Assembly (NCBI GenBank): GCA_008632985.1
Contig: QPGO01000053.1
Span: 310,001-374,000, forward strand
DNA from: Psammoneis japonica
Lineage: Eukaryota
Length of the DNA: 64,000 nucleotides
Direction: 5' to 3'
Made by a program: the position numbers and the translations under genes. The stretch's first letter is position 1; each line of letters starts with the position of its first letter. The notes under the pieces were generated by a model. It was not told the origin of the DNA. It did not search any database and saw nothing but the letters and a program-made list of their open reading frames with translations. This document shows, one piece after another, positions 1,985 to 31,189 of the stretch.

Positions 1985-2809
1985 GGAATAGTCGTAGTAT
2001 CTCCTCATACTCCGTATACAAGCTACTGTTTATGCTACTGTATAATGTATTGTGCTTTGTGGCGTTTTTGCCACCCTTTGATCGGGTGACTGCTGTGATT
2101 CTTCAAGGTAGCGACCGCTGAGTGAAGAACAGGATACAAGAAAGAAGAAGAAGAGAAGATCTCCTTGTTACGAAATTTTCCGAAATCCTCTCAGCTTGCT
2201 TCCTTGCTTCTAGAACGAATCTATTTCAACTAGAAGCATGTCTATCCGCTAATGATTCAGCTGAAACGATTCAACAAACTGCAGGACCAAGATGGATAGT
2301 GTTAGGTGATTGCAAAGTGATTGCCTTCATCCATGCGAGTTTTCACACGCCTATTCTTGCATTTTTATCCTGCCAGCTCTTCAATCTAGTACCTGGGAGG
2401 TCTCCTTATCCTCCGTGGCTGTTGTCGTCAAAGCCCGCCATTGTCGGGATGACTGCGGTCGAAGAATGCCAAGAAGCTGTTTCGAAATTTCGCTCGGGAT
2501 GTTTGTAATCAGACACGAACAACACTTAAAAAATTTTCAGTGACCTTTCTATAAAATTGAATATTATGCATCGACGTAGATAACGATTTAGGATAACCGG
2601 CAGAGATCGAATGTCCACTTCATACCGAACTTTTGCGTAGACAGCTACGTGGGGGCTCCCTACTTCACCGATAGAAAGGGCTGTTGTGTTGAAGCCGCGA
2701 TGGAAGTCGTGTGCTGTTGTGTTGTTGCTGCCTCGCCCTGTTGCTATTATTCTCCTTGCATTCACGTCTCGCAATTGCGATTGAGACGCAAGGTGTCTCT
2801 ACATTTATC

Positions 2810-5207
2810 ATGTTTGGGAGAAAAAAGAAGAAGAGCGGTCTCAAAGGCGGCTCTGCGAAAGCAAACGGTCCGGGTGCAACGTCGGTCCCCGGAGGGAATA
2901 CCGTGTTTCGCGTGACTGTGCCTGACAATGTGAAACCGGGCGAGGAATTCCAAGTCTATGCCGGCAATCGCATTGTTCGCGTCAAGTGCCCTCCAGACTC
3001 AAGTCCCGGTCAAGCGCTTCAGATTACAGTTCCGACTGATCCCAGCGGCAGTGACAGCGGAAGTCTCGGGAGCGGAAATTTCAAGCCTGCTCCTCCCCCT
3101 CCGCCGGTTGACGATCTCCCCCCGGACTCTCCCAATGTCCGTCAGCTGAACGATAGTAACGCTTACATGGTGACGATTCCTGATGGAGTACTGCCTGGAA
3201 CTCAGTTCCCCGTCACGATCCGTGGACAGCAGCTTATGGTTACATGTCCTCAGAACGCTCGTGCCGGTACTCAGGTGAGAATCGTCCCCCCACCTCCGCC
3301 TGCCTCGCTGGACCGGCCTCCAGAGAACCGTCCAGTGGCACCACAGCGTCCTCCCAAGGATGAGAGCACACAGTTGTTTGAAGTGGAGGTTCCTCCCGGA
3401 GTACAACCGGGATCGCCCTTTGCTCTGTTGGCTGGAGGCGTCCGGGTGTTGGTGACGTGCCCCACGAATGCGTCTCCCGGACAGCGAATCCGATTCAAGT
3501 TGCCCAAGGCCTTGACGGAGAAAACGCGTGAAGCGCCTGCGGATAACTCTGCAGCTGCTATTCGACTCTCGTACGATAAGGATGGATGGACGCGTACCGT
3601 GAGAATTTCAGATATGAAATTCCAATGGGTCCGTATGGATGACAAGGGAGACGTCGATACCAACAAGCGCTTTAGCATAAAGAATTCGGCCTATGTGCGC
3701 AAACTCGAATTGAGGCAAGGCGATGATCCGAGAATCAGAACAGGAATTATCAGTCTTGTGCCAGCCAATGAAGGTCTCGTGGACTCCAAGATTAAGAACG
3801 TTGAAGGCCGCGATTTGGTTTCCTATTCTGATATCGCTGGAGCGCAGATCAAACCCTTTGAAGAAAAGGCACAGTGGTTCCAGGATACTTGCGCTCAGCT
3901 TTGTGTCGAGTGGAACGAAGGTCACATGCGTATGAATGTCCGTCGCGCATTCTTGTTGGGAGATTCCGTCGATGCCGTCATGAGTCTGAGTCGCAAGGAT
4001 TTGCGCAAGTTGTGGAGATTTGAGTTTATCGGTGAGATGGGTATTGACGCCGGCGGACTGGCCAGAGAATGGTTTCAGCTCGTTACAGAAGAAATCTTTG
4101 ATCCTGACATGGGTCTTTGGCAATCCAGTGCGGTCAACCAAATGTCCATGCAAGTCAATCCTGCTTCAGGTGAGTTCAGAAAGAAAATATCGTTTAGCTA
4201 GCTACTTAGTCTTTTCTACACTCTGATGTACCCGTTTCTTCTTCTTTTCTTCCACAGAATTTTGTTGCGAGGACCACTTGGTGTACTATCGTTTCTTGGG
4301 TCGCGTTATGGGAAAGGCCCTCTTTGATCGCCAGTTGTGTTCGGGTCACATGGTGCAGTACATTTACAAGCACATGCTCGGCTGGCCTGTGGCCTTTGCT
4401 GATCTCGAAACCGTTGACGAGGAGTATTTCAACAATCTTAAACAACTAGAAACGCTGGTGGAAAACGGTGAAGACTTGTCCATGATGTGCCTGGACTTTA
4501 CGACCACGACTGAAGTCTTGGGTACAAAGGAAGAGATTGAGTTGATTCCGGGCGGCGCCGACGTTGAATTGGACAACGATAACTTTCCCGAATACCTTGA
4601 GGCCTGTCTCAAATATAAGCTACTCGAGGTCGTCAAGCCCCAGCTGAATGAATTGCTCTTGGGTTTCTTTGATGTCATTCCCGAGCCTCTCCTTACCGTG
4701 TTTGACTTTCAAGAATTAGAGTTGCTCATGTGCGGTCTACCCGAAATCGATATGGACGATTGGAAGACCCACACGGAGTATTCCGGCGAGTACGATGGAG
4801 ATCCAGACCATCCTGCCTGCCATTGGTTCTGGGAAGTTGTTACGGACTTTGATCACGAAATGAAGGCCCGTCTCCTTCAGTTTGTCACGGGAACTTCGGG
4901 TGTGCCGTCGCGAGGCTTTGGTGTGTTGCAGGGAAACGACGGAAATATCCGAAAATTCACAGTGCACGGCGTTCCAGTTGGCGTCTGCCTTTACCCTCGC
5001 GCACAGTAAGTACTGTAGAGGAAATGGGGAGACATTTCGTTCTCATGTTGATGCGACCTGTCACCTAACTTTGTGCTTGAACTTTCGTTTCGTCGTAGCA
5101 CTTGCTTCAATCGGATTGATCTTCCAATGTATGAATCCAAGGAGGAATTGGAGGAGAAGTTGAAGCTTGCAGTGACGATGGTTGCGACGGGCTTCGACAT
5201 TGAGTAG
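2810..5207 (+). CDS. HECT-domain E3 ubiquitin ligase with three N-terminal ~45-aa repeats
   Basis: Exons 2810-4169, 4258-5005 and 5099-5207 joined by GT-AG introns in frame. Motifs EFIGEMGIDAGGLAREWF, LLQFVTGTS and catalytic PRAHTCFNRIDLP (split by intron 2). Confidence 0.95.
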
Positions 5208-5938
5208 CAACCCCAGCCGTGATTTACTTTTATGTTTGTATGTGGAGCTTCTGCGATTAGAGAGATTGTTACCTATTTCTGGCCAATTGCTTCTTTACTG
5301 TAGCGTAAGAGTAACTCCGTCTAGGTAGCATTGAGGAGAAGCAATGAGTCGTTGTAAATAAGCAGTGTGCACCTTCTATCATTAGTAAAAGTTGAATAAA
5401 CATAGGGTCAGTTTCACCTCCGTGCTTCCAAGTTTTGCATTGCATTCCTGTCCCTGTGATTTTCAACGTGAAGTTTCGCTTTGTCGGAAATCAAAATCTA
5501 GTTTAGGGATGAGTTCCTTTGCAATCTAGGTCCACAGGTAACAAAACAAAAGGAAGCGTCCACCATATGACGTGTTCCACAAAGTATACTCCAAGAAGGA
5601 CACGTTTGAATATGTCTTTGTCGTTCATTTATGGGTACAGTATGCATGGATGCATGGACAACCACAGAGAGAAAGAAGAAAAGGGCCTAATAAATATCAT
5701 AATTGTTGGACGGCGGTTGCAATTTGAATTGTTGTATTACATTCATGTATCCATTTTACTGTATATTTTTTGTTCAAAATTTCAAAAAGATGCGTTGGGC
5801 GGAAAAAAAGACAGGAGAGATTTGCATCAATGTCAAAGTATCAAAGCTCGCCTCTTCACAACCTCTAGACCTAGGGCTCTACTACTTTGGGATCGTGACC
5901 CTTGCTACCGCTTGACCTTAACCATTTTTTTTTTCATT

Positions 5939-7516
5939 ATGGCAAGAGGCGTCGTTGTTGAGAGCAAACCCTCCTTCGAACAAACATCCAGAGCGTCAAG
6001 GCAAGGAATAGGTGAATCATCATGCGAGTTGGAATGTGTTGATGTCGACTTTGAGCCAGACACAAAGGTGGATAAAAGAATATCGAGACGACTGTGGTGT
6101 CGAGTTGCTTTCATCTCTATCTCATTGATAACTTTGGTTGCTATTTCAGTGATAACACTGACACTGATCACGGGGAACTTGGACCGCCAAGACGAGCATG
6201 ATGAACCTTCGGTTCTCAGCCCACAAAATTCAGATGATCGATCTCCTTTGCCATCCCATCAAGAGACTTTGATGCCGTCAACGTGGATTCCAGACGAAGA
6301 AAAAGAACTTTTGTCACCTTCTCTGTCTCCTATTGTCGACTTCCAGCCAGTGAAAGACAGTCTCCCAACGACCATTCCGACGAGTACTTTTTCTTCTTCC
6401 AAGTTCAGTGCAGAGTGGCTGCAAGTTGGTAAGGATATTGTAGGAACTCGACCTGATTCTCTATTTGGAACCACGATTGCTTTGTCAGAAGACGGAAGAA
6501 GAGTAGCTGTTGGGGCTAGGCACTATGACAGCGGAGAAAGGATAAAAAACAACGGTCTCTTACGCGTTTTCGAAGATAAAAACGGTGGTTGGACGCAGCT
6601 TGGTAATGATATTGAGGGACAAGGTCCTGAACAAATGTTAGGGAAGACAATTTCAATGTCCAGCAACGGGGAAATAGTCGCCGTGAGTGTTAATTCTTAT
6701 GATGAGCATTTTGACCCTCGTGTTCAGGTCAAAGTGTATCAGTACAGCGACGGTAACTGGCAAATTTTAGGTGCTCCGATTGACGGCAACACTGGAACTA
6801 TGTTGAGTGAGAGTTCTGTAGCAATGTCGAGGAGTGGAGATACAGTTGCAATTGTAAATGAAACGCTCGCAACTGTGTATAAAATACTTGGCGATGGGTG
6901 GTCGCAACTTGGAAACGACGTATTACTCGTTCAAGAAAGCAACAAGGCTAGCTCTATCCCGCAGGTGTCAGTTTCTGACCGGTATCTGATCATTGTCAAC
7001 AAGGGAATGCTTCAAATGTATCAGCGTTTACAAGGTGCTTGGTCGAGTGTGATGTGTGATGTGGACGTAGAATATATCGATGGGCACATCAAAGACGTCG
7101 TTGCAGTGTCACGTGACGGGACAATCATGGCCGCTAAATCAAGAACCACTAATCAGTATGAAGTGATGATGCGTCAAACTAACGCCATTGAAGACAATTT
7201 CTCTTGCTCTTGGGCTCAAATTGGAGGCAAAATTGAGTGGACGGCTAATGATGAGTATTCAAGGGTTGATATTTCCTTGTCAGGCAATGGAACAATGATC
7301 GCCTTCCATGGAGACAGAAGTACTACTACCACTGTATTCAGCTTTGATCAACTAAAAGGTTGGGCTCCAAATGCGCGCGACCTGGATACAGGCAAGTTTT
7401 CCTCAACCGCTGTCGTGCTGTCTGGCGATGGCCGTCGCGTCGCCCTTGGCGTAGGTGGTGACGACAGTCAGTTGGAAAGTGTCCGTGTTCTACATTTTTT
7501 GGAGACTCCTACGTAA
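5939..7516 (+). CDS. Single-pass membrane protein with extracellular beta-propeller (FG-GAP/WD-like repeats)
   Basis: TM segment VAFISISLITLVAISVITLTLI, a P/S/T linker, then repeated W.Q(L/V/I)G.DI.G and (A/S)LS.DG.RVA(V/L)G motifs. The track ORF upstream of ATG 5939 looks non-coding. Confidence 0.8.
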   Translation: MARGVVVESKPSFEQTSRASRQGIGESSCELECVDVDFEPDTKVDKRISRRLWCRVAFISISLITLVAISVITLTLITGNLDRQDEHDEPSVLSPQNSDDRSPLPSHQETLMPSTWIPDEEKELLSPSLSPIVDFQPVKDSLPTTIPTSTFSSSKFSAEWLQVGKDIVGTRPDSLFGTTIALSEDGRRVAVGARHYDSGERIKNNGLLRVFEDKNGGWTQLGNDIEGQGPEQMLGKTISMSSNGEIVAVSVNSYDEHFDPRVQVKVYQYSDGNWQILGAPIDGNTGTMLSESSVAMSRSGDTVAIVNETLATVYKILGDGWSQLGNDVLLVQESNKASSIPQVSVSDRYLIIVNKGMLQMYQRLQGAWSSVMCDVDVEYIDGHIKDVVAVSRDGTIMAAKSRTTNQYEVMMRQTNAIEDNFSCSWAQIGGKIEWTANDEYSRVDISLSGNGTMIAFHGDRSTTTTVFSFDQLKGWAPNARDLDTGKFSSTAVVLSGDGRRVALGVGGDDSQLESVRVLHFLETPT

Positions 7517-10721: not shown

Positions 10722-11666
10722 CTACGCATTCTGTGATACATGAGATGCTAATTGTCCAAGCCATTTCAAGTCTTGACTTGTAAATGCTGCAAGTAATTGA
10801 TTCGATGACATGAGCCAACAATACTCTTCGTCTCCATCAATGCGTTGTAACACAACACACCTTCCGTTTTCATCGTCGACCAGACTTCTAACAGCAGGAT
10901 GCGTTGGTGGTAAGGATACGCGGCCGCTTGTTGACTTACGGAGCGTTTCTAGCGCTGCCTGTGTGCCATCTATAATATTTTCATCACTCTGGCTCTGTTC
11001 AATATTTCCCAACTGGTATAATACACGACCGGGAGCAAGCAACATCATATTCGTAGCTGGTGTCAAGGCGACAAACGATGCAGCAGACCATTGAACAGCT
11101 TCTTTGAAGTCGTTTTCTGTTGTTAGTTCCTGCGACCAACGTTGGACTAGACTTGCATCATCACGAGTTACACTCTGATAAGATCTGTCGTCCTTTTGGT
11201 CAAAGGAAATCCCCATGGCTTCCCTAGATTGCTTTTCAAATTCAATAGCAGCTTGCAGCAAAAGCAAACAACTGTAGACAACTGCCAATCCCTCAGATGA
11301 ATTGATACCACTGTCAACGTCTGAAGATAGCTTATGATTTACAGCTGTCAGAACCAACACCACCAAGCCAAACAGTAGTCGGACCCGAGGGCCCTCTAGA
11401 CCCGGGATAAAGAATCCAGATCCGCGCTCAATTGCGGCTGATGGTCGACTGTAGACACCCTTTTTTCGATCCTTAGAGGAAGCATACAACGCGGTTTTCT
11501 TTATCCTCGCAGGTGCAAGGGTCTTTGGCGATCTTTTTCGCAAATTTTGGCCCAATCTTGACGATCCGACGCAATTACAAAGTTGTAACGTTGGTGTTTG
11601 TTGAAGGACAAACGAAGAAGCACCGCATGCCGAGTTGCCGACAAGAAGCATCGCCAAGAATTTCAT
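10722..11666 (-). CDS. Cofactor assembly of complex C subunit B (CCB2/CCB4-like), plastid-targeted
   Basis: Signal peptide ending ASS-F plus transit peptide. YSRPSAAIERGSGFFIPGLEGPRVRLLFG, two TM helices and a GAF-like C-terminus (…AFTSQDLKWL). Confidence 0.7.
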   Translation of the reverse strand: MKFLAMLLVGNSACGASSFVLQQTPTLQLCNCVGSSRLGQNLRKRSPKTLAPARIKKTALYASSKDRKKGVYSRPSAAIERGSGFFIPGLEGPRVRLLFGLVVLVLTAVNHKLSSDVDSGINSSEGLAVVYSCLLLLQAAIEFEKQSREAMGISFDQKDDRSYQSVTRDDASLVQRWSQELTTENDFKEAVQWSAASFVALTPATNMMLLAPGRVLYQLGNIEQSQSDENIIDGTQAALETLRKSTSGRVSLPPTHPAVRSLVDDENGRCVVLQRIDGDEEYCWLMSSNQLLAAFTSQDLKWLGQLASHVSQNA

Positions 11667-11919
11667 GGCTTGTTCTTCCAACGTCAGACTTCAAGCTTAA
11701 GTAGCCGATAGAGAGATCTCTAACTATTTCGATTCTTACAGTCGCCGCGATTGTTACAGAGACGTTCTTTTTTTGACTGATGAGAGATGAGGGAAGCACG
11801 CGAGAGCTTTCAGTGACCCGTGCGCACTGCACTGTCGCACTGTGCGATGTGCTGTGTGCTGTGGCCGCAAGAAGACAGACACGCGGACAGAAAAGACATC
11901 AATCGCTTTTTACTCTAGT

Positions 11920-20642: not shown

Positions 20643-21632
20643 TTAGAATGAACCATTCTGCAACAATTCACAATATCGGGTCATATCAACGTTGCCTCCT
20701 GATACAATCACGCCACAATTGCTGCCCTCCTTTACTTCACCGCAGGAAATCATCTTCTTTAATCCAGCCAAGCCGAGACATCCAGTAGGCTCAACGACGA
20801 TCTTCAACTGTTGTGCGAACAAGCCCATACAGCTTACAAGTTCATCGTCAGTGACGGTGACTATCTTCTGCAGGCGTTTGCTCATGATTGCATAATTCAA
20901 TTCTCCAATGTTTTTTGTTTGTGCACCGTCAGCTATCGTTTTGGGAGTCAGGATCTTAACGATTCTTCCTGCGAGCAATGATTGTTGCGCGTCATTTCCC
21001 GCTTCGGGTTCCACTCCAATAATCTTACAATGTGGCGCTAGTTCCTCAAAGGCAAGACAGCATCCGCTTATGAGGCCTCCACCCCCGACGCAGACAAACA
21101 AGTAATCCGGCGAAACACCGCGGTCTGACATTTCTTCCAACAGTTCCTTTCCGACTGTCCCCTGTCCTGAAATCACATACTTGTCATCAAATGGTGAAAT
21201 AAACACGGCACCGGACTCTTTCTCGATGTTTAGAGCGATTTCATCGCCATCCTCCTCGTAGCGATCGTATTTTACAATGTGGCCGCCGTATTCATTGGTT
21301 GCTTCGACTTTACTGACGGGGGCGTCGTGAGGCATGACGATGGTAGACTTGATGTTTAGAATGGACGCACTTAATGCGATTGCTTGGGCGTGATTTCCGC
21401 TCGAAGTTGTCACGACACCAGCCTGCCGTTGCTGCGGAGTGAGATGACTCAGTACGTTGAAGGCACCACGAAACTTGAAGGCTCCCATTCGTTGAAAGTT
21501 TTCACATTTAATGAAGCACGTTACTCCAAGCTGTTTATCAAGAGTCCGACTTGTGTGTACTGGAGTTACATTTGAGACCCCCTTTAGAATTTCAGATGCT
21601 TCCTCAACATCCTTGTAAGTCGGCACATCCAT
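20643..21632 (-). CDS. PLP-dependent threo-3-hydroxy-L-aspartate ammonia-lyase / serine racemase family, copy 1
   Basis: KCENFQRMGAFKFRGA (PLP lysine), SSGNHAQA, CVGGGGLISG, TIADGAQT, VEPTG and SGGNVD. Intronless. Confidence 0.93.
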   Translation of the reverse strand: MDVPTYKDVEEASEILKGVSNVTPVHTSRTLDKQLGVTCFIKCENFQRMGAFKFRGAFNVLSHLTPQQRQAGVVTTSSGNHAQAIALSASILNIKSTIVMPHDAPVSKVEATNEYGGHIVKYDRYEEDGDEIALNIEKESGAVFISPFDDKYVISGQGTVGKELLEEMSDRGVSPDYLFVCVGGGGLISGCCLAFEELAPHCKIIGVEPEAGNDAQQSLLAGRIVKILTPKTIADGAQTKNIGELNYAIMSKRLQKIVTVTDDELVSCMGLFAQQLKIVVEPTGCLGLAGLKKMISCGEVKEGSNCGVIVSGGNVDMTRYCELLQNGSF

Positions 21633-21970
21633 GTTATCAACAACACCAAAACACCTCGTTCACAGATGGATCGAGTCGATGCTACGAAGCATAACCTATC
21701 GCTCAATCTGCTGTTTTCTACCTCGGTGTTTTACCAGCGCACCAAATTAGACTAAAATTGAAGACGCTCCCATCTACAGTGTCGTCATGGTCGGAACTCA
21801 TCACTTTTTTTTTGCGCGGGAATTGTGACGTCATCAGAGTGGAGGGAATTTCGAATTTTCGATATCCAGCCGCAGGAATGGGGAAGTTGTCAGTCCCCAA
21901 AACCCGACCCTTTCCACGCTCGTATTATCCTTTCACATCCCTTCGTCCTCCTTGTGTGTGACATAGAAAA

Positions 21971-23256: not shown

Positions 23257-24234
23257 TTAACCCACCAATTCGCAATATCGAGCCATGTCGACATTGCCAC
23301 CAGAAACAATCACTCCACAATTACTGCCCGGAGTAATTTCACCAGTCGCGACCATTTTCTTGAGGCCAGCGAGGCCCAAACAACCCGTAGGCTCTACAAT
23401 AAGCTTCATTCGCTCACCAAAGAACTTCATGCCTTCCACAAGCTCTTCATCGCTTACTGTAATGATTTTGTGCACCCGTTGGCGCATGATTTCAAAAGTC
23501 AATTGTCCGAGGTACTGTGTTTGTGCTCCATCGGCGATAGTCTTGGGGGTGGCAATTCGAATGATTTCTCCCTTTTCCATGGACTGTTGGGCATCGTTGC
23601 CGGCTTCGGGCTCCACTCCAACGACTTTGCAATCCGGCGCCAGCTCTCCCGCTGCAAGAGCACAGCCACTAATGAGCCCTCCTCCTCCGACACACACAAA
23701 AAGATAATCCAGCTTGACGCCTCTACTGATAACAGTTTCTAAAAGTTCTTTTCCGGCAGTTCCTTGGCCGGCAATCACATGTTTGTGATCATACGGTGGT
23801 ACAACGACGGCGCCCGTCTCTTGTTGAATTCGGGTCGCAATAGCATTCCGATCCTCTTTATAACGATCGTATGGTACAATATTTCCACCATAACCCTTTG
23901 TGGCTTGTACCTTCATTGCGGGTGCATCTGTTGGCATTATAATTGTTGATTTCATGTTGAGTAGTGATGCACTGAGCGCAATTGCTTGAGCGTGGTTTCC
24001 GCTTGAAAACGTAACAACACCAGCTTTCCTCTGTTCAGGAGTCAGATGGCTGAGAGCATTGAACCCACCACGAAATTTGAAGGCCCCCATTCTTTGAAAG
24101 TTTTCGCACTTGATGAAGACATTCACATTAAGCTGTTTGTTGAGTGTCCGACTTGTTTCAACAGGAGTCACGTTGGAAACTCCCTCCAAGATTTTCGCAG
24201 CCTCCTCGACGTCTTTGTAGGTAGGGAGTTCCAT
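23257..24234 (-). CDS. PLP-dependent threo-3-hydroxy-L-aspartate ammonia-lyase / serine racemase family, copy 2
   Basis: Same motifs as copy 1 (KCENFQRMGAFKFRGG, FSSGNHAQA, PPYDH, TIADGAQTQYLG). Intronless, start MELPTYKD. Confidence 0.93.
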   Translation of the reverse strand: MELPTYKDVEEAAKILEGVSNVTPVETSRTLNKQLNVNVFIKCENFQRMGAFKFRGGFNALSHLTPEQRKAGVVTFSSGNHAQAIALSASLLNMKSTIIMPTDAPAMKVQATKGYGGNIVPYDRYKEDRNAIATRIQQETGAVVVPPYDHKHVIAGQGTAGKELLETVISRGVKLDYLFVCVGGGGLISGCALAAGELAPDCKVVGVEPEAGNDAQQSMEKGEIIRIATPKTIADGAQTQYLGQLTFEIMRQRVHKIITVSDEELVEGMKFFGERMKLIVEPTGCLGLAGLKKMVATGEITPGSNCGVIVSGGNVDMARYCELVG

Positions 24235-24591
24235 TATAACATACCAGTTGCAGATTTTACTGTTTGGTGTCAGCAGCACCTATTTTGGCTTGGACGCGTA
24301 GGAGTAGGACTATGGAGCGACGGTCAACAACGCATTTTTCGATACGCTCATTGCTTCCAGCTTCAAACCACGCACTCGAGCCACGCCGACATTTCTGGCA
24401 TTCGCGCGCGAAATTCTAGTACATAATATATATTCAATTTGTATAAACTTATACCGAATCATTACTAAAGCTACTGTAGAAATGTACATACGGCTCTCCC
24501 AGTATATTTCCACTAAATTATCAAATTTCTCCCTCCGACAACGCTTGCCGATTCTTCCAGCCCCGGCCGCAAAGAAGCAACAGCCGTCGTT

Positions 24592-27500
24592 TCAACCATC
24601 AACACGACGACGCAGCAAAGCGTATTCTACCGTCACACCGGGTCCGAAGGCAAGCACACCGAGATCATCATGGTGTCGTAGCGCGTCTTTGTCCTTCAGA
24701 ATGTCGTGTAAAACAACAAGTGTGGCTGTGCTTCCAAGGTTACCTCGCTGGAAAAAGGTGTTCTCGCACGTACGCAACGCATCATCGGGCCATCCGCGTT
24801 CAACGATAGCCTTGTGGACAGCACCTAAAATCCTGGGTCCGCCGGGGTGGACAGCCATTGCCGGTCGCTTTTCGCCGCCCACGGCGTTTTTGAAGCGATC
24901 GATGATACGACGACCGTTCCCGTTAGAGAAATACTCATAGATGGCAGCCGGGACTTCTTTCGAAAGCTTCATCTTGTAGCCTGTCGCTCGGTCAGGATGA
25001 TCTGGAATTAAGCCCAAAAGGGTCTTGGACTCAGGAATGACGTGACAACCACTCTCACGAAAGCGCCATTCGCCCTCTGGAGCAATAATGGCCGCTCCCG
25101 AGCCATCGCAGAAGAGAGACATGGCAAGAATATCCTCTCGGTCCTGTATCGTTATGTCGTGGTGCGCAGAGGGCACTTCGACCCCAACTACCAGCACACA
25201 GCGCCGTCCCGTATTCCCTTGTCCGTCGTCGAGAACATTGCTTGTGCCTTCTCGAGCTGCGGAGTTATCGGAACCTGCGCGGACAATGTCTCGAGCGGCA
25301 CGCAAACAAGTAGCGGCCGCAAAGCAACCGTTCATGTGAAGCTCCTGCTTCTGAACGTCGTGACGAAGACCCAGCTCCTTGATAAGGTGACCTGCGATTC
25401 CAGGCTCACGCCAACCAGAGGCCGTTGTGGTAATCACGTGAGTAATGTCGGAAGCATTTCCGCGATGAGCTGGATGCGGTTTGGTTGCCCAATCTTCTAG
25501 TGCTGCGCGAGCTGACGCAAGCGATGCCTTTTGTGCCACATCCCACCAGATATCTGATCGCTCCGCACTTGATAGCTCATGAGGTTTCTTCCCCTTCAAA
25601 TGGCTCAGCAAATTCTCGCTGAGCCCAGTAGACGAAGATTCCTTTGTTCCGTGATAGGCGGGTAAAGCGAGATGACGAGTTTGGATCCCAGTGCTCTTCG
25701 CCATCTTATGAGAGAACGAAATTGCGTCGTCGTCTTGACCGAAATCCTCTCTCGCAAATTGAATTGCTTTCATCATTTCATCTGTTGAAACTTGATCACC
25801 AACAAAGCCAACACCTGTTGCAGCAATGTACGCTTCTGGTCTTGACGGCGTAGGGGGCTTGAGCATCGATGCAGCAAGAAATCCGCCAGCCGCAAGGGCT
25901 GCAATGGTCTCCAGACTCCTCGTATCTATCGGTAAACCGTTTTGATGGATCAGTTTTGCCATGACTGCGCCTATAGCTGTACCGGATAGAGCAAGAACTT
26001 GGTGGTTGGTAGGAGAAAGGAGTTGCCCAGCGGGGACAATTTGCTTGACACGATTCCACCCATTTGCCAAAGCTGAAGAAGATGGCGTTTTCAACTCTTT
26101 GGGCTCGAGGCGTCCTATAATATCCGACACCGTGATATGTTCATCCATCAACCACGTCACCGGGAAAGCCTCGGGTTCAAGCGAAAGATTTTCGCACAAC
26201 GCGGTGTGAAGTTCGACTGCTTTCATTGAAGATAGGCCCAACTTTGTCAGCTTATCAGCAGGATCGACTGAGAAGCCAAGCGTGTCTTGGAATGTTTTAT
26301 AAACGACAGCGACATCGAATGCTGCAGCAGAAGTCTTTTTTAATGGCTGATCACGACTCCAGACCAAGATGGTATCCTTCGTTGACCACTGGTTTGAGCG
26401 TGATTTCCTTTGCGTTTCGACGCGCTTGAGCTTGCCGGACGTGGTTTTCGGAATTGTGTGGCTCTGCAGAATGCAAACGTAGCCAAGAGCAACGTCACAG
26501 TTGCTTGAGACCATGCTGCAAAGCTCTTTGGCTGTCGGAGCATCGTAAGAAGTTTTTCCTTTTCGAATCTCAAGCACGAGGCCGACATTGTCTTCCTCGT
26601 TCTGAAAGGCGACAATACATCCAGGGCGTACGGTCTCTGGATATGCCTTTTCGACGGCCCGCTCGATATCAACAGGGAAAACATTGCGTCCATTCAGGAT
26701 AATGACCTCTTTCGAGCGTCCCGTAACGTAGATGTTGTCGTCGACCACCTTTCCTAGGTCGCCAGTCGAAAGCCAATCCCCATCTTCGTCTTGTAACTTG
26801 TTTCGAAACGTTTCGTTGGTAAGCTCTGGCTTGTTCCAGTATCCGTCTGCTACAAGGTATGGGGCGCGGATCCATATCTCACCAATTGTTCCGTCTGCAA
26901 CAGCCTTCGGATTCCCGCTTGTTGAATCTACAACTCGGAGTGCTGCTGGACTGTGAATGGAGGTCGTGCCGTCCACAGGGACACTAGCAACAAGGTTGTC
27001 GTTCACGGTATATTTAGCCCATCCAGCGGCAACACCGAGCTCTGCCATTCCGTAACCAACCCTTGAGATGAAAGAGAAAGCGCCAAGAAAAATGAGATTT
27101 TTGATCGGAAGGAAGAGCGCAAAAAAAAAAGGTTTGAACGTACCGTAGGTATTCTGGTTTGACGCCGAGGACTTCTTTCGCTTGCTCCATCACGGTGGGA
27201 TCGACTGGCTCTGCTGCGTTGATGAGTGTTCTGATCGAAGTCCACTTTTCGTAGTGCTTTCCGCTTTGCTGTAGACGCTTGACCAAGAGACCGTAGGAGA
27301 AATTCGGCGCCAGAGTAGAATGGGCCTTGTACTTGACAACAGCTTCATGCCACAAAAGAGGATTTTGGATGAAATCGATTGGGGAAAAGCTAATGCCGTG
27401 GAACCCAGAGTAGATGGCAGTCATGAAGTATCCCAATAGTCCCATGTCGTGATACTGAGGCAACCATGACACACCGACCTTGGGTTCATCTGGTGAATGA

Positions 27501-28435
27501 AGATCCCCGACGACCATGCAGTTGTGAACGTTGTGAATCAGAGAGCGATGAGAGATGATAACTCCCTTCGGCGATCCTGTAGAGCCCGATGTGTACTGAA
27601 TAAAGGCCGTGCTTTCTTGAGTTGGTAGGCTCTCCTCGTCCACATTGGCGGTCCCGGAGCTCCTGTCGGTCGCGATCCATTTTACCTGAACAAAGCGAAA
27701 ACAAAAGAATGAGTTTCAAATGCGGCTCACAAAAAATGCGTTGTACGATTTTTGCAATGCACCTACACCAAGTCCAGCGCTACCGAATAGTCGAAATCCT
27801 AGATAGAGCTTGAACTTTGTCGTCGTTAAGGCAAAATTTGCTCCGGCATCGTTCACTTGATTTTGGAAGGCTTCCAAATCAGACGCCTTGGCGGGATTGG
27901 GAGGATAAACGCTGCAGGCAATGACCCCTGCCCGCATGCACCCTACAATGCCTGCCAAGAACTCGAGTCCAAATGGGTACGCAATCATGACACGATCGCC
28001 TTGCTGGACTCCATTGGATCGAAGCAAGCTAACGACACCTGTCGACTGCTGCCATAGATCGATGTAGGTCAAATGCTGAGATTCGTTTCCTTTCTCGTCG
28101 AGCCACGTCAAGATGAGACGATTTGGCTGTTTTTCAACGTGAGTCTTGAGGACAGAGACCAACGTGTCGTTCTCCCCCGGAGCGGTCGGTCTTGAATTCG
28201 AAGTCCTCGAGTGACTTTCCTTATCGCTGCTCAGCTCTGGTACTAACATGATAACGTCTCTCGTTGTGACGTTTTCAAAACCGCCACTCTTGTTTGCACT
28301 GTTGTCGGCGGCCGTGAGAGCGTCGGTTGGTGGAGCGCCGTCGCGTGGAGGAGTCGGTGGCGTCGCATTGGATGTTGCGGAAGAAGCTGGAGATAGCGGC
28401 GGCGATAGCCCCGCGTCAATAATGTCGTTGATCAT
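24592..28435 (-). CDS. Fatty acyl-AMP ligase - acyl carrier protein - type III polyketide synthase fusion (~1226 aa)
   Basis: Exons 28435-27767, 27685-27144 and 27061-24592 (81- and 82-bp GT-AG introns, total 3681 nt). FAAL motifs FIQYTSGSTGSPKGV, SWLPQYHDMGL, GYGMAE, TGDLG, GRSKE and PKTTSGK. ACP LGLSSMKAVEL. Type III KS triad MNGC, HPGG and GNLGS, plus LFCDG and AFGPG. Confidence 0.92.
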
Positions 28436-29297
28436 TTTTCAAAATCCAACCGTCAAATCAAAATGACAGCGCGGAGAAACGGCTTTAGAGTCGTCGGAAG
28501 AATGAAAGGCTTGCAGAGGAAATGAGAATGCACGGTGTCTCAACAACACGAACGTTGTCTTGGAACAAGCTGTAAGATGTCTTTATCAAGTGAAAGTCGT
28601 AACAAGTTGTTCTTGTGTCGCTTGACAGTTCTGAAAATTATGTTGTGTTTGGCGGTTTGCTTTGTGCGGCATCCCAAGTTTGGTTTTGGTCGCGGAAGAA
28701 GAAGTGACAGAAAGACGGATGGACGCTCGTGACTGAATACGAATCATTCGAATGCCTCCATTCCCGAAACCTGTTTATCCAACTCGCCACGAAAGATTTT
28801 ACGGGGGCTCATATGACTATATTAACTATATGACATTTAAAATATATGTATTGTTGCGTTCGGTCATTCTCTAAGATATCTTTACTGATTTTATATTAAG
28901 ATATGTAGGTGTTTATATTGATCGAAACCCATACAAATCCGCCGTTCAACGGACGAATCTAACTGTCGCCAACCTGTCGCCACTCCGCGAGGCCACGCAC
29001 AGCAAATTCAACCTTGGACCTTGAGATCGCCGCGTTGGCACTGTTGGCAAGATCGGTTCATTCCCGGCGGTGCTTGTTGTGGTACGACTGTACATCTCGT
29101 GTCGACTTTGCTGCAACGTTAGACCTTAGAATCACTGACAAGAGACCTAGTGAGCTATAGAGAAAACTGAGCTGTTGAGTTGTTCCTACTTGACGAGGAA
29201 ACTACAACTTACGCAGCCACACAAAAACTATACACAACCCAGGTTCAGTTTTGAGAGAAAGCCCCTCCTATTCATTATGCATACTTTCAACCTTATC

Positions 29298-31189
29298 ATG
29301 ACGAGGCTTCTGCTTGCCGCGGTACTTTTTGTATCTGCCATGGCGCAGACGCCAAGTGTGTCTCCATCAATGATGTCGGAGATACCTACCGCTTCACCGA
29401 CTGTTGCTGAATCGGAGAGTCCCACTGATGCGCCTGATACCGATCAACCTACAGTGACTCCCGAGGAACCGAGTAAGTCTCCTACTGATGCCCCTACGAT
29501 CGCGCCTTCGAGTACCCCTACGGTCGCCGCTACTCAAGCTACCACCGCTCCCTCTAGTTCTCCGACCGATGCTCCGACCGGTACTCCAACCGTAGCTCCC
29601 TCTGGTTCGCCAACCGAAACACAAGAGACCGATTCCCCGACAGCCGATATCCCATTGACAGAAGTGCCTAGCGTTTCTCCAACAATCGCCCCATCTGCGG
29701 AGGACACCACCCCTTCAGCAAGTCCGACGGAGACTGCAACAGTGTCCTCGGCACCAACAGCGGAGGTTCCGGAGCCAACTGTCTCACCAACTGGAGTGCC
29801 TACGAGCATGCCGTCGGTTGCTTCTCAAGTCCCATCCATGATGCCCAGCAGCAATGGTACTAGTAGTGGGCCTCCAACCACCACTAGTCCACCAGTCACT
29901 AGTCCTCCAACCACTGCACCACCAACGCCCCCGGTCATAACAGACAGTATTTCTGGATTGAGAATGGGTTTGGTGGGTCTCGTTGAACAGTTCTCCACTT
30001 CAGACTCGGAGCTATGGCAGAATGCAACCAAGGAGTACTTTGAGGGGTTTTACAATGATCGTCGTCGTCGTTTGCTACGCACGTTGCAAGCTGTATCTGT
30101 GGAAAACGTTGAAACCACACTCAAGGTGACTGACACCCAAGTCTTGAACGACCCTGATACTTTGGAAGTTACATATGATCAGGAAGTCTCGTATGTTTCG
30201 GATAGCGGTCCAAATAGTGATTTGACAAACAAGCTGGTATCAGAACCATTTGAGGGTGCAACGAATCAACAGGTTTATGCAAGTGACCTTCGAGCAGCGG
30301 GACGGGCTGCGGGCAATGATGTCTTTGACAATTTGGTTACAACCACGGGTGTTGCACTGCCTGAGGAGTCTAGTGGAGACAGCGGATTGTCTACTGGTGC
30401 CATTATTGGAATTGCATGTGGTGGAGCCGCCGGATTGTTGTTGCTTGGTGGTGGCGCTATGTATTGGAGAAGCAGGAGGAATGCTGGAGGAGCGGCAGCA
30501 GGCTCTGGGTATCTGAAGTCGGATTCGGAAGATGCTCCTCCTCAGTCGTTGTCAGGGTGAGTTTCTGCATTGCAGCGTGGATGTGTCTGTTCGAAGGCGT
30601 TATCTCAAAGTTTCTGCTTTTTTTTCCTTTTAGCGCGCGGAGCGATGAAGTTAGCACTCTTGGAGACCCAAAAACGAAATCTGGAGTGGCATCCGGCGAT
30701 GAGTTTACGGGGTATGGCGATCAAAGTGTGGCCACGGTTGATTATGACTATTCCAAGGCCTATGGAGGAGCTGGAGAATCGGTTTCTTCAGCTGGGGGTA
30801 CCTTTGGTTCCAACACACAGGGACAAGCATCCATGGCTGCAGGCATTGGTGCCGGTGCTGCGCTAGCCGGTGCGGCGGCGTATAGCGACGATGAATCCTT
30901 TGATGCACAATATCGTGGGAATCAGAGAGAAGAAGTAATTGACGTTTACGCTCCATCAGGAAAGCTAGGAGTCGTGATTGATACACCAGACGACGGCCCT
31001 CCCGTGGTCCACGCAATTAAGGATTCTTCTGTGATTGCCGATAAGTTGCAAGTGGGAGATCAGCTTGTTTCTGTGGATGATGAAGACGTTCGATCCATGA
31101 CAGCCATCAAGGTATCGAAGCTCATTTCTCGCAAGAGTGGTAACGCAACCCGGAAGCTAACTGTTATCCGCAGAGTTGCGGCTGAGTAA
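29298..31189 (+). CDS. Type I membrane protein: signal peptide, P/S/T repeats, TM helix, C-terminal PDZ domain
   Basis: Intron 30557-30633. RRRLLRTLQ RxL motif, TM GAIIGIACGGAAGLLLLGG, PDZ APSGKLGVVIDTP…LQVGDQLVSVDDEDV. Alternative ATG at 29277. Confidence 0.9.

Follow-up and report, generated by a model that had tools for sequence, protein, structure and literature searches.

A diatom nuclear gene predicted to join a fatty acyl-AMP ligase, an acyl carrier protein and a type III polyketide synthase within a single polypeptide

The locus described here raises the question of whether a single diatom gene can supply both a polyketide synthase (PKS) of type III and the means of loading its starter unit. 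It lies in a 64,000-nucleotide stretch of Psammoneis japonica DNA (GenBank assembly GCA_008632985.1, contig QPGO01000053.1, positions 310,001 to 374,000), which is referred to below as the window and within which all coordinates are numbered. A preliminary description of the sequence had proposed that a fatty acyl-AMP ligase (FAAL), an acyl carrier protein (ACP) and a type III PKS are joined here in one self-loading polypeptide. The reading that we consider probable is that of an intact diatom nuclear gene whose product, a single protein of ~1226 amino acids and ~135 kDa, would accomplish in cis the work that bacteria divide among three individual proteins.

The reading frame begins with an ATG at 28435-28433, two codons downstream of an in-frame TGA (28441-28439), and closes with a stop codon at 24594-24592, so that the boundaries originally given for the gene are exact. 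Analysis of open reading frames (ORFs) reveals three open pieces in different frames that are joined by two GT..AG introns. Intron 1 is required because the unspliced frame of exon 1 terminates at a TGA (27718-27716), and intron 2 is needed because read-through at the second junction alters the frame; the two canonical introns of the preliminary description are thus both retained. Removal of intron 2 yields ...PEYLR/VGYGMAE... (the slash marks the junction), which places the A5 motif of the adenylation domain back in register with three fused homologues, P0122, P0133 and P0272, that are described below. Two donors for intron 1, at 27766 (GTAGGT) and 27730 (GTGAGC), both preserve the frame. Against a FAAL profile of 71 sequences (68 database FAALs and the FAAL parts of the three fused homologues), the model with the 81-nt intron scores 462.3 bits versus 454.7 bits for that with the 45-nt intron, which needs a 12-residue insertion relative to the profile. 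The 81-nt intron was adopted, giving 1226 amino acids, and the 45-nt form, disfavoured by 7.6 bits, is kept as a possible alternative. The fusion itself is independent of the intron model because exon 3 alone is a single 822-codon frame; this exon spans the region from A5 to the end of the PKS, and with Pfam matches distributed across the exons the three domains stand in one reading frame, as had been claimed.

The protein starts with an extension of ~88 residues (28172-28435, minus strand) that is rich in Ser, Pro, Thr and Ala, of low complexity and lacking a counterpart in P0122, P0133 and P0272. As the extension is not hydrophobic, it contains no obvious signal peptide, and the true start could be a Met downstream of it.

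The adenylation domain is assigned to the FAAL type on several grounds. The Pfam family AMP-binding is matched in exon 1 (profile positions 2-100, E-value 1.4e-16), exon 2 (153-312, E-value 1.8e-28) and exon 3 (318-384), and exon 3 additionally matches AMP-dom_DIP2-like, the C-terminal subdomain of the DIP2/FAAL type, with 35 bits. The spliced domain (462 bits against the 71-sequence profile) contains the motifs YTSGSTGSPKG, YGMAE, STGDLG, GRSKEVIILNGRNVFP and PKTTSGKLKR. The top matches of its parts in the PDB are FAALs (3kxw, 7r7e-g, FadD28, 3pbk, FadD23 and FadD32), which rank above acyl-CoA ligases, and the top NCBIfam families are likewise of FAAL type, although with the exon pieces none of them scores above its curated threshold. 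Among relatives of the FAAL with a named source, those of the diatom Seminavis are nearest. Precomputed Pfam assignments show that P0002, P0004 and P0006, the proteins most similar to the C-terminal part of the FAAL (45-48% identity), are fusions with FAD-dependent oxidoreductase domains.

An AlphaFold2 model of exon 3, calculated from a 59-row alignment, has a mean predicted local distance difference test (pLDDT) value of 83. Four helices are predicted for the ACP (exon-3 residues 250-261, 278-292, 301-305 and 311-318) with pLDDT values of 80-89. The presumed phosphopantetheine-bearing residue, Ser278 of exon 3 (Ser682 of the full-length protein; codon 26229-26227), lies within the sequence LGLSSM at the N-terminus of helix II (278-292). 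The homologous position in P0122, P0133 and P0272 aligns as GL(S/Q)S, and the aligned ACPs of these three proteins pass the Pfam PP-binding family with 30.6, 36.2 and 40.0 bits, respectively. The placement of the serine at the head of helix II in this confident four-helix model, together with its alignment with the homologues, bears out the earlier report of an ACP with an intact GLSS serine.

The type III PKS domain forms the C-terminal third of the 1226-residue protein with the ACP ahead of it, an arrangement that departs from that of the free-standing, carrier-free type III PKSs. It matches the Pfam families Chal_sti_synt_N and Chal_sti_synt_C with 55.2 and 39.2 bits (cut-off 27), and a phmmer search of the PDB returned 99 type III PKS sequences at E <= 0.001, the best being 3wd7 (E-value 8e-22). 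The catalytic residues are Cys579 (25326-25324; residue 983 of the full-length protein), His738 (24849-24847; residue 1142) and Asn774 (24741-24739; residue 1178), and their motifs MNGC, HPGGP and GNLGS align with the catalytic motifs of the solved type III PKSs 3wd7 and 6l5u. A 17-sequence alignment shows no variation in the corresponding columns C179 and N374 and conservation of 90% or more in H338; the Cys-His-Asn triad noted at the outset is thus present. The pLDDT of the PKS mostly exceeds 90, except in a loop at exon-3 residues 599-621, where the window PKS and P0122 share an insert of ~20 residues that is predicted to be disordered.

Table 1. Coordinates in the window of the gene, its exons and introns, and the domains of its predicted product
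Feature	Coordinates	Strand	Remarks
Whole gene	28435..24592	minus	Three exons, two introns; encodes ~1226 amino acids
Exon 1	27767..28435	minus	223 codons; N-terminal extension, then N-terminal part of the FAAL; alternative end 27731
Intron 1	27686..27766	minus	GTAGGT...CAG, 81 nt; alternative 27686-27730, 45 nt, donor GTGAGC
Exon 2	27144..27685	minus	180 codons + 2 bases; FAAL core, A3 motif YTSGSTGSPKG
Intron 2	27062..27143	minus	GTACGT...AAG, 82 nt, phase 2
Exon 3	24592..27061	minus	Uninterrupted frame, 822 codons + stop; FAAL A5-A10, ACP, linker and whole type III PKS
FAAL-type adenylation domain	26356..28171	minus	Introns included; FAAL profile, NCBIfam and PDB matches
ACP	26107..26313	minus	Exon-3 residues 250-318; Pfam PP-binding, AlphaFold2 model, alignment
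ACP-PKS linker	25837..26106	minus	Exon-3 residues 319-408, ~90 residues
Type III PKS domain	24595..25836	minus	Exon-3 residues 409-822; Pfam, PDB phmmer, AlphaFold2 model

Several observations weigh against a self-loading FAAL-ACP-type III PKS. The splice junctions were placed from sequence and homology. The best solved relatives of the PKS are plant enzymes that are about 30% identical, and the class of product is not readable from the sequence. The 18 flanking ORFs scanned with Pfam include no obvious tailoring gene, such as one for a methyltransferase or a monooxygenase. The ACP scores 19.8 bits (E-value 9.5e-4) with Pfam PP-binding, 1 bit short of the gathering score of 20.8. The spacing between the A5 and A7 motifs is 96 residues, compared with a median of 113 in 104 FAAL-like sequences (those of the 125 examined in which both motifs could be located), and the profile alignment shows about 18-19 fewer residues between YGMAE and the conserved strand that follows. 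The FAAL-specific insertion after A5 therefore appears to be shortened and not clearly absent. This insertion has been proposed to block the formation of acyl-CoA, and a mycobacterial FAAL from which it had been deleted reacted weakly with CoA (both from the available portion of PMC11837247); strict rejection of CoA by the diatom domain is consequently not assured. The FAAL had been called complete, which holds for its core motifs and its FAAL-first matches and has to be qualified for the insertion region.

The adenylation domain could, on this evidence, be an acyl-CoA ligase, with the PKS primed by free acyl-CoA and the ACP vestigial or serving another role. The shortened insertion, the subthreshold PP-binding score and the weak CoA reaction that follows removal of the insertion are all compatible with such an enzyme. 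However, both the serine and the fold of the ACP are kept, the ACP is conserved between the FAAL and the PKS in all complete homologues, and the C-terminal subdomain fits the DIP2/FAAL-type Pfam model. In addition, five of the 104 FAAL-like sequences are similarly short (A5-A7 spacing <= 99), one of which is named as a FAAL by NCBI. An acyl-CoA ligase is thus considered to be a distinctly improbable alternative to a FAAL that loads the adjoining ACP.

An exhaustive phmmer search with the PKS domain against 1.84 billion representative sequences returned 1607 proteins at E <= 0.001, 34 of them at E <= 1e-30. A Pfam scan of 31 relatives, of which 30 were taken from the 150 best matches listed and one, P0273, was added, identified FAAL and/or ACP parts in eight. 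Three have the complete FAAL-ACP-type III PKS architecture: P0122 (1152 residues), P0133 (1273 residues) and P0272 (1192 residues). P0124 and P0121 are N-terminally cut versions of the fusion, P0125 and P0271 are ACP-PKS proteins and P0228 (2522 residues) has the order FAAL-ACP-KS-AT-MT-ACP-type III PKS, in which MT is a methyltransferase. P0228 is a hybrid resembling the Steely proteins of Dictyostelium, with a FAAL loader, and intermediate between the window protein and the Dictyostelium enzymes. The closest relative of the window protein is P0122, the PKS domain of which is 56% (BLASTP) or 60% (phmmer) identical. P0122 is labelled as a complete ORF on an MMETSP transcript, and therefore a relative expresses the whole fusion on one mRNA.

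These homologues bear on two further explanations. The first is that the gene gives rise to separate proteins, either from transcripts starting within exon 3 or by proteolysis of the linker, which would act in trans as in bacteria. Residues 321-360 of the linker are predicted to be disordered (pLDDT below 50), and several database relatives are PKS-only or ACP-PKS proteins, many of which are likely to be fragments. The continuous ORF without an internal stop, the single transcript of a relative that encodes the whole fusion and the three complete fused homologues all argue against this explanation, which is accordingly given very little weight. The second is that the gene is decaying or non-functional, or is an assembly chimera. 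The unusual, low-complexity N-terminal extension of 88 residues might be taken in this sense, but the catalytic motifs of all three domains are intact, the frame of 1226 codons is open and the same domain order recurs in independent sequences from other organisms, which leaves this explanation scarcely credible. A single intact protein remains the preferred reading.

A quick maximum-likelihood tree was calculated from 71 PKS domains, comprising that of the window and 70 drawn from the 131 hits in which the domain is nearly complete (the hits ranked highest, a few extra hits and every third of the remainder; P0228 was not sampled). The window protein and all seven carrier-bearing rows fall in one 28-row clade (SH-aLRT support 100), which also contains bacterial enzymes. 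Within this clade the window protein and P0122 (99) stand apart from a group containing the other six carrier-bearing rows (99), and the carrier-bearing label needs at least two changes on the PKS tree (starred branches). This distribution may reflect one fusion followed by losses, or fragments counted as PKS-only, or it may reflect two independent fusions. Taken from these sequences, the fusion appears to be conserved in a small protist family. A comparison of exon 3 with metagenome contigs gave 69 loci that match the FAAL part only (26-46% identity), with the PKS covered in none, and a feature search of the ESM Atlas returned only FAAL/PP-binding clusters with scores of at most 0.84, among which the fused architecture did not appear; the latter search was uninformative.

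Two of the PKS relatives have repeated PKS domains. P0140 (4818 residues) contains 12 tandem type III PKS domains, with 12 stretches each of Chal_sti_synt_N and Chal_sti_synt_C. In P0121, two letter-identical PKS domains follow the C-terminal part of the FAAL and the ACP in tandem, which would point either to a duplication of very recent date or to an artefact of the assembly.

Counterparts of the PKS clade are found in prokaryotes. With the 17-row PKS alignment as the query and one genome per species, 27 loci were identified in Burkholderiales, Terriglobia, Planctomycetota, Myxococcales, Sporocytophaga and others; their PKSs are 32-45% identical to that of the window and up to 55% identical to that of P0133. 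A FAAL is encoded within 6 kb of the PKS in five of the 27. At one of these loci (L013) an ORF of 1075 residues (2781-6005) containing FAAL and ACP ends 11 bases within the PKS ORF, overlapping the PKS start, and at another (L019) the PKS is directly followed by a FAAL-ACP-KR protein. Because bacterial genes of the PKS clade adjoin FAAL-ACP genes in this way, the diatom protein looks like a fused bacterial gene pair, and the gene most likely originated when a FAAL-ACP gene of bacterial type was fused with the gene for its partner type III PKS. The final ~400 residues of the FAAL-ACP protein at L013 have no Pfam match at E <= 1e-4.

The nearest functional parallel is the Ftp system of Myxococcus xanthus, in which the same three catalytic parts are present as separate proteins (FtpA, a type III PKS; FtpD, a FAAL; and an ACP), suggesting a shared logic, in which a FAAL charges an ACP with a fatty acid and a type III PKS takes the acyl-ACP as its starter for alkylresorcinol or alkylpyrone lipids. 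FtpA reportedly receives its starter as an acyl-ACP formed by FtpD. Bacterial operons of the ftp/srs type usually also include a methyltransferase and a flavin hydroxylase. The bacterial FAAL, ACP and type III PKS are encoded by separate genes, whereas the diatom locus encodes one polypeptide, is interrupted by introns and is not accompanied by tailoring genes among the flanking ORFs scanned.

Of the proposals considered, self-loading is the one best supported by homology, through the FAAL-first matches, the position of the ACP serine on helix II and the bacterial clade members that lie beside FAAL-ACP genes. By analogy with such systems, we infer the following course for the reaction. The FAAL-type domain would adenylate a carboxylic acid in its free form, most probably a fatty acid of medium or long chain length, and would then pass the acyl group to the ACP, onto the phosphopantetheine arm carried by Ser682. 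The flexible linker of ~90 residues would bring the acyl-ACP to the type III PKS, where the acyl group would be taken onto Cys983. The PKS would presumably extend it a few times with malonyl-CoA and cyclize the chain to an alkylresorcinol or alkylresorcylic acid, or to an alkylpyrone.

In this scheme the adenylation domain might instead select something other than an ordinary fatty acid (a hydroxy, branched, dicarboxylic or aromatic acid). The product would then differ from a plain alkyl phenol or pyrone, with loading within one protein unchanged. FAAL phylogeny does not follow chain length, according to the accessible text of PMC12820801, and the fusion of the closest FAAL relatives to FAD-oxidoreductase domains hints at modified acyl chains in the wider family. 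On the other hand, the best matches of the domain are long-chain fatty acyl-AMP ligases (FadD32-like, FadD23, FadD28 and PRK12476), and the characterized FAAL-primed type III PKS systems use fatty acids; for the FAAL of the Myxococcus alkylpyrone system, for example, C18:0 is entered in the part of the supplementary table of PMC12820801 that was available. Selection of another acid is therefore regarded as unlikely, and a fatty acid is retained as the probable starter.

The hydrophobic linker and the possible membrane anchoring of the preliminary description require separate consideration. Two Ala/Gly-rich hydrophobic stretches (25948-25998 and 25861-25911) are present between the ACP and the PKS, just ahead of ...RPEAY(I/L)AATG. 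Their 19-residue Kyte-Doolittle means (KD19) of 1.32 and 1.51 are below the usual value of 1.6 and do not exceed those of buried strands of the same protein, such that the linker is only weakly hydrophobic. In the AlphaFold2 model residues 321-360 lie below a pLDDT of 50, and helices are predicted with low confidence for residues 360-399. Four sequences of the subclade to which the window protein belongs cover the linker region (those of the window, P0150, P0122 and P0137). P0150, a fragment from a relative, has hydrophobic stretches at the same position that are stronger (2.36 and 1.59), and the linkers of P0122 and P0137 have none. The two segments could form a hairpin that leaves the ACP and the PKS on the same side of a membrane, the signal for this being weak in the window protein. 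The linker was also considered as a transmembrane anchor of the window protein, and this candidate was left as weak. Of the original suggestion, the two hydrophobic stretches themselves stand, and anchoring of the window protein by them is weakly supported.

A different feature is observed in several relatives. The C-terminus is strongly hydrophobic in five carrier-bearing homologues (P0133, P0272, P0121, P0124 and P0125) and also in the PKS-only proteins P0130, P0131 and P0128, with KD19 values of 1.8-2.6 inside the final 40 residues, which fits tail anchors. The window protein and P0122 end immediately past the PKS fold. It is conceivable, and is put forward here tentatively, that diatoms and some other protists possess an unrecognized family of one-protein, membrane-tethered synthases of phenolic or pyrone lipids, derived from the fusion of a bacterial FAAL-ACP with its partner type III PKS and held at the membrane by a tail anchor in one subclade and, in the other, by a hydrophobic hairpin between the ACP and the PKS. 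If this were true, it would imply an undescribed class of diatom lipids and a type III PKS that is obligatorily primed by an ACP in cis.

The surroundings of the gene agree with its proposed origin in an algal nuclear genome, which can be stated more precisely as that of a diatom. The window is gene-dense and its introns are short. A CCB2/CCB4-like gene for cytochrome b6f cofactor assembly (10725-11690, minus strand) marks the host as photosynthetic. For a neighbouring PALP enzyme, the named relatives that match best come from the diatoms Odontella, Grammatophora, Cylindrotheca, Thalassiosira and Cyclostephanos (63-74% identity), and the Seminavis relatives of the FAAL point in the same direction. 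The window contains two paralogues of the PALP family (20646-21659 and 23260-24279, both minus strand) that are 1.6 kb apart, the second lying immediately downstream of the PKS gene. With 63-64% identity to the PALP enzyme, bacterial threo-3-hydroxy-L-aspartate ammonia-lyases are almost as near as the proteins of other diatoms, which suggests a bacterial origin of these paralogues. The divergent ORF at 29154-30560 (plus strand) encodes a repetitive Ser/Thr/Pro/Ala-rich protein with a signal-like N-terminus, a hydrophobic C-terminal segment and no Pfam match, and its product looks like a mucin-like surface protein.

To our knowledge, no natural fusions of type III PKSs are well known apart from the two Steely proteins of Dictyostelium. 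In these, type I fatty acid synthase (FAS)/PKS domains lie upstream of the type III PKS. This type I module builds the starter de novo, whereas in the diatom protein a FAAL would recruit a ready-made acid; unlike Steely, none of the three exons has a Pfam match to ketoacyl-synt, Acyl_transf or KR. Like the diatom protein, Steely A and B are single eukaryotic proteins; their C-terminal type III PKS is supplied from an upstream module containing a carrier, and the carrier-bound starter is handed to the fused type III PKS (available text of PMC12625978). The same source, as far as its text could be obtained, describes type III PKSs as homodimers without carrier domains and calls the two Steely hybrids unique. 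Bacterial FAAL-ACP didomain loaders such as HapA, NocH and AmbG resemble the diatom protein in having a FAAL fused to its cognate ACP; they deliver to type I PKS or nonribosomal peptide synthetase modules or to free-standing ketosynthases, and none of those in the available portion of PMC11837247 is fused to a type III PKS. The stand-alone type III PKSs of stramenopile algae, such as the phloroglucinol synthase PKS1 of Ectocarpus, belong to the same superfamily (PMC10366177 and PMC7284882, both available in part), and algal type III PKSs are treated as self-contained in the accessible part of PMC10794256. In contrast to the diatom fusion, these proteins of ~400 residues are CoA-dependent and have neither carrier nor adenylation domains.

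The literature on algal type III PKSs, in the parts available, states that the model diatoms Phaeodactylum and Thalassiosira pseudonana are without these enzymes. A 2026 survey (PMC12820801, available in part) reports that, among eukaryotes, diatoms encode the largest number of FAALs per genome, and lists a 'Bacillariophyta (FAAL-PKS)' multidomain arrangement for which the type of PKS is not given; no chalcone-synthase entry for diatoms was found in the text of its supplement, one table of which was available in part. No description of a FAAL-ACP-type III PKS polypeptide was found in full-text literature searches, although the supplements of PMC12820801 and PMC8460268 (file 4, eukaryotic FAAL architectures) may list it. 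The architecture is not unique to this gene, given that eight of the 31 scanned PKS relatives share all or parts of it, and its novelty is limited to that extent. The fusion is real and uncharacterized, and it combines parts that are already known in a way whose logic could be foreseen.

A polypeptide of the order FAAL-ACP-type III PKS would represent a second and simpler means of supplying such a synthase with a lipid starter. For biosynthetic engineering it would provide one compact gene as a module that turns an acid into a phenolic lipid. It would be a clean case of evolution from operon to fusion following transfer from bacteria to eukaryotes, and would show that diatoms, the model species of which have long been said to lack type III PKSs, make polyketides derived from fatty acids.

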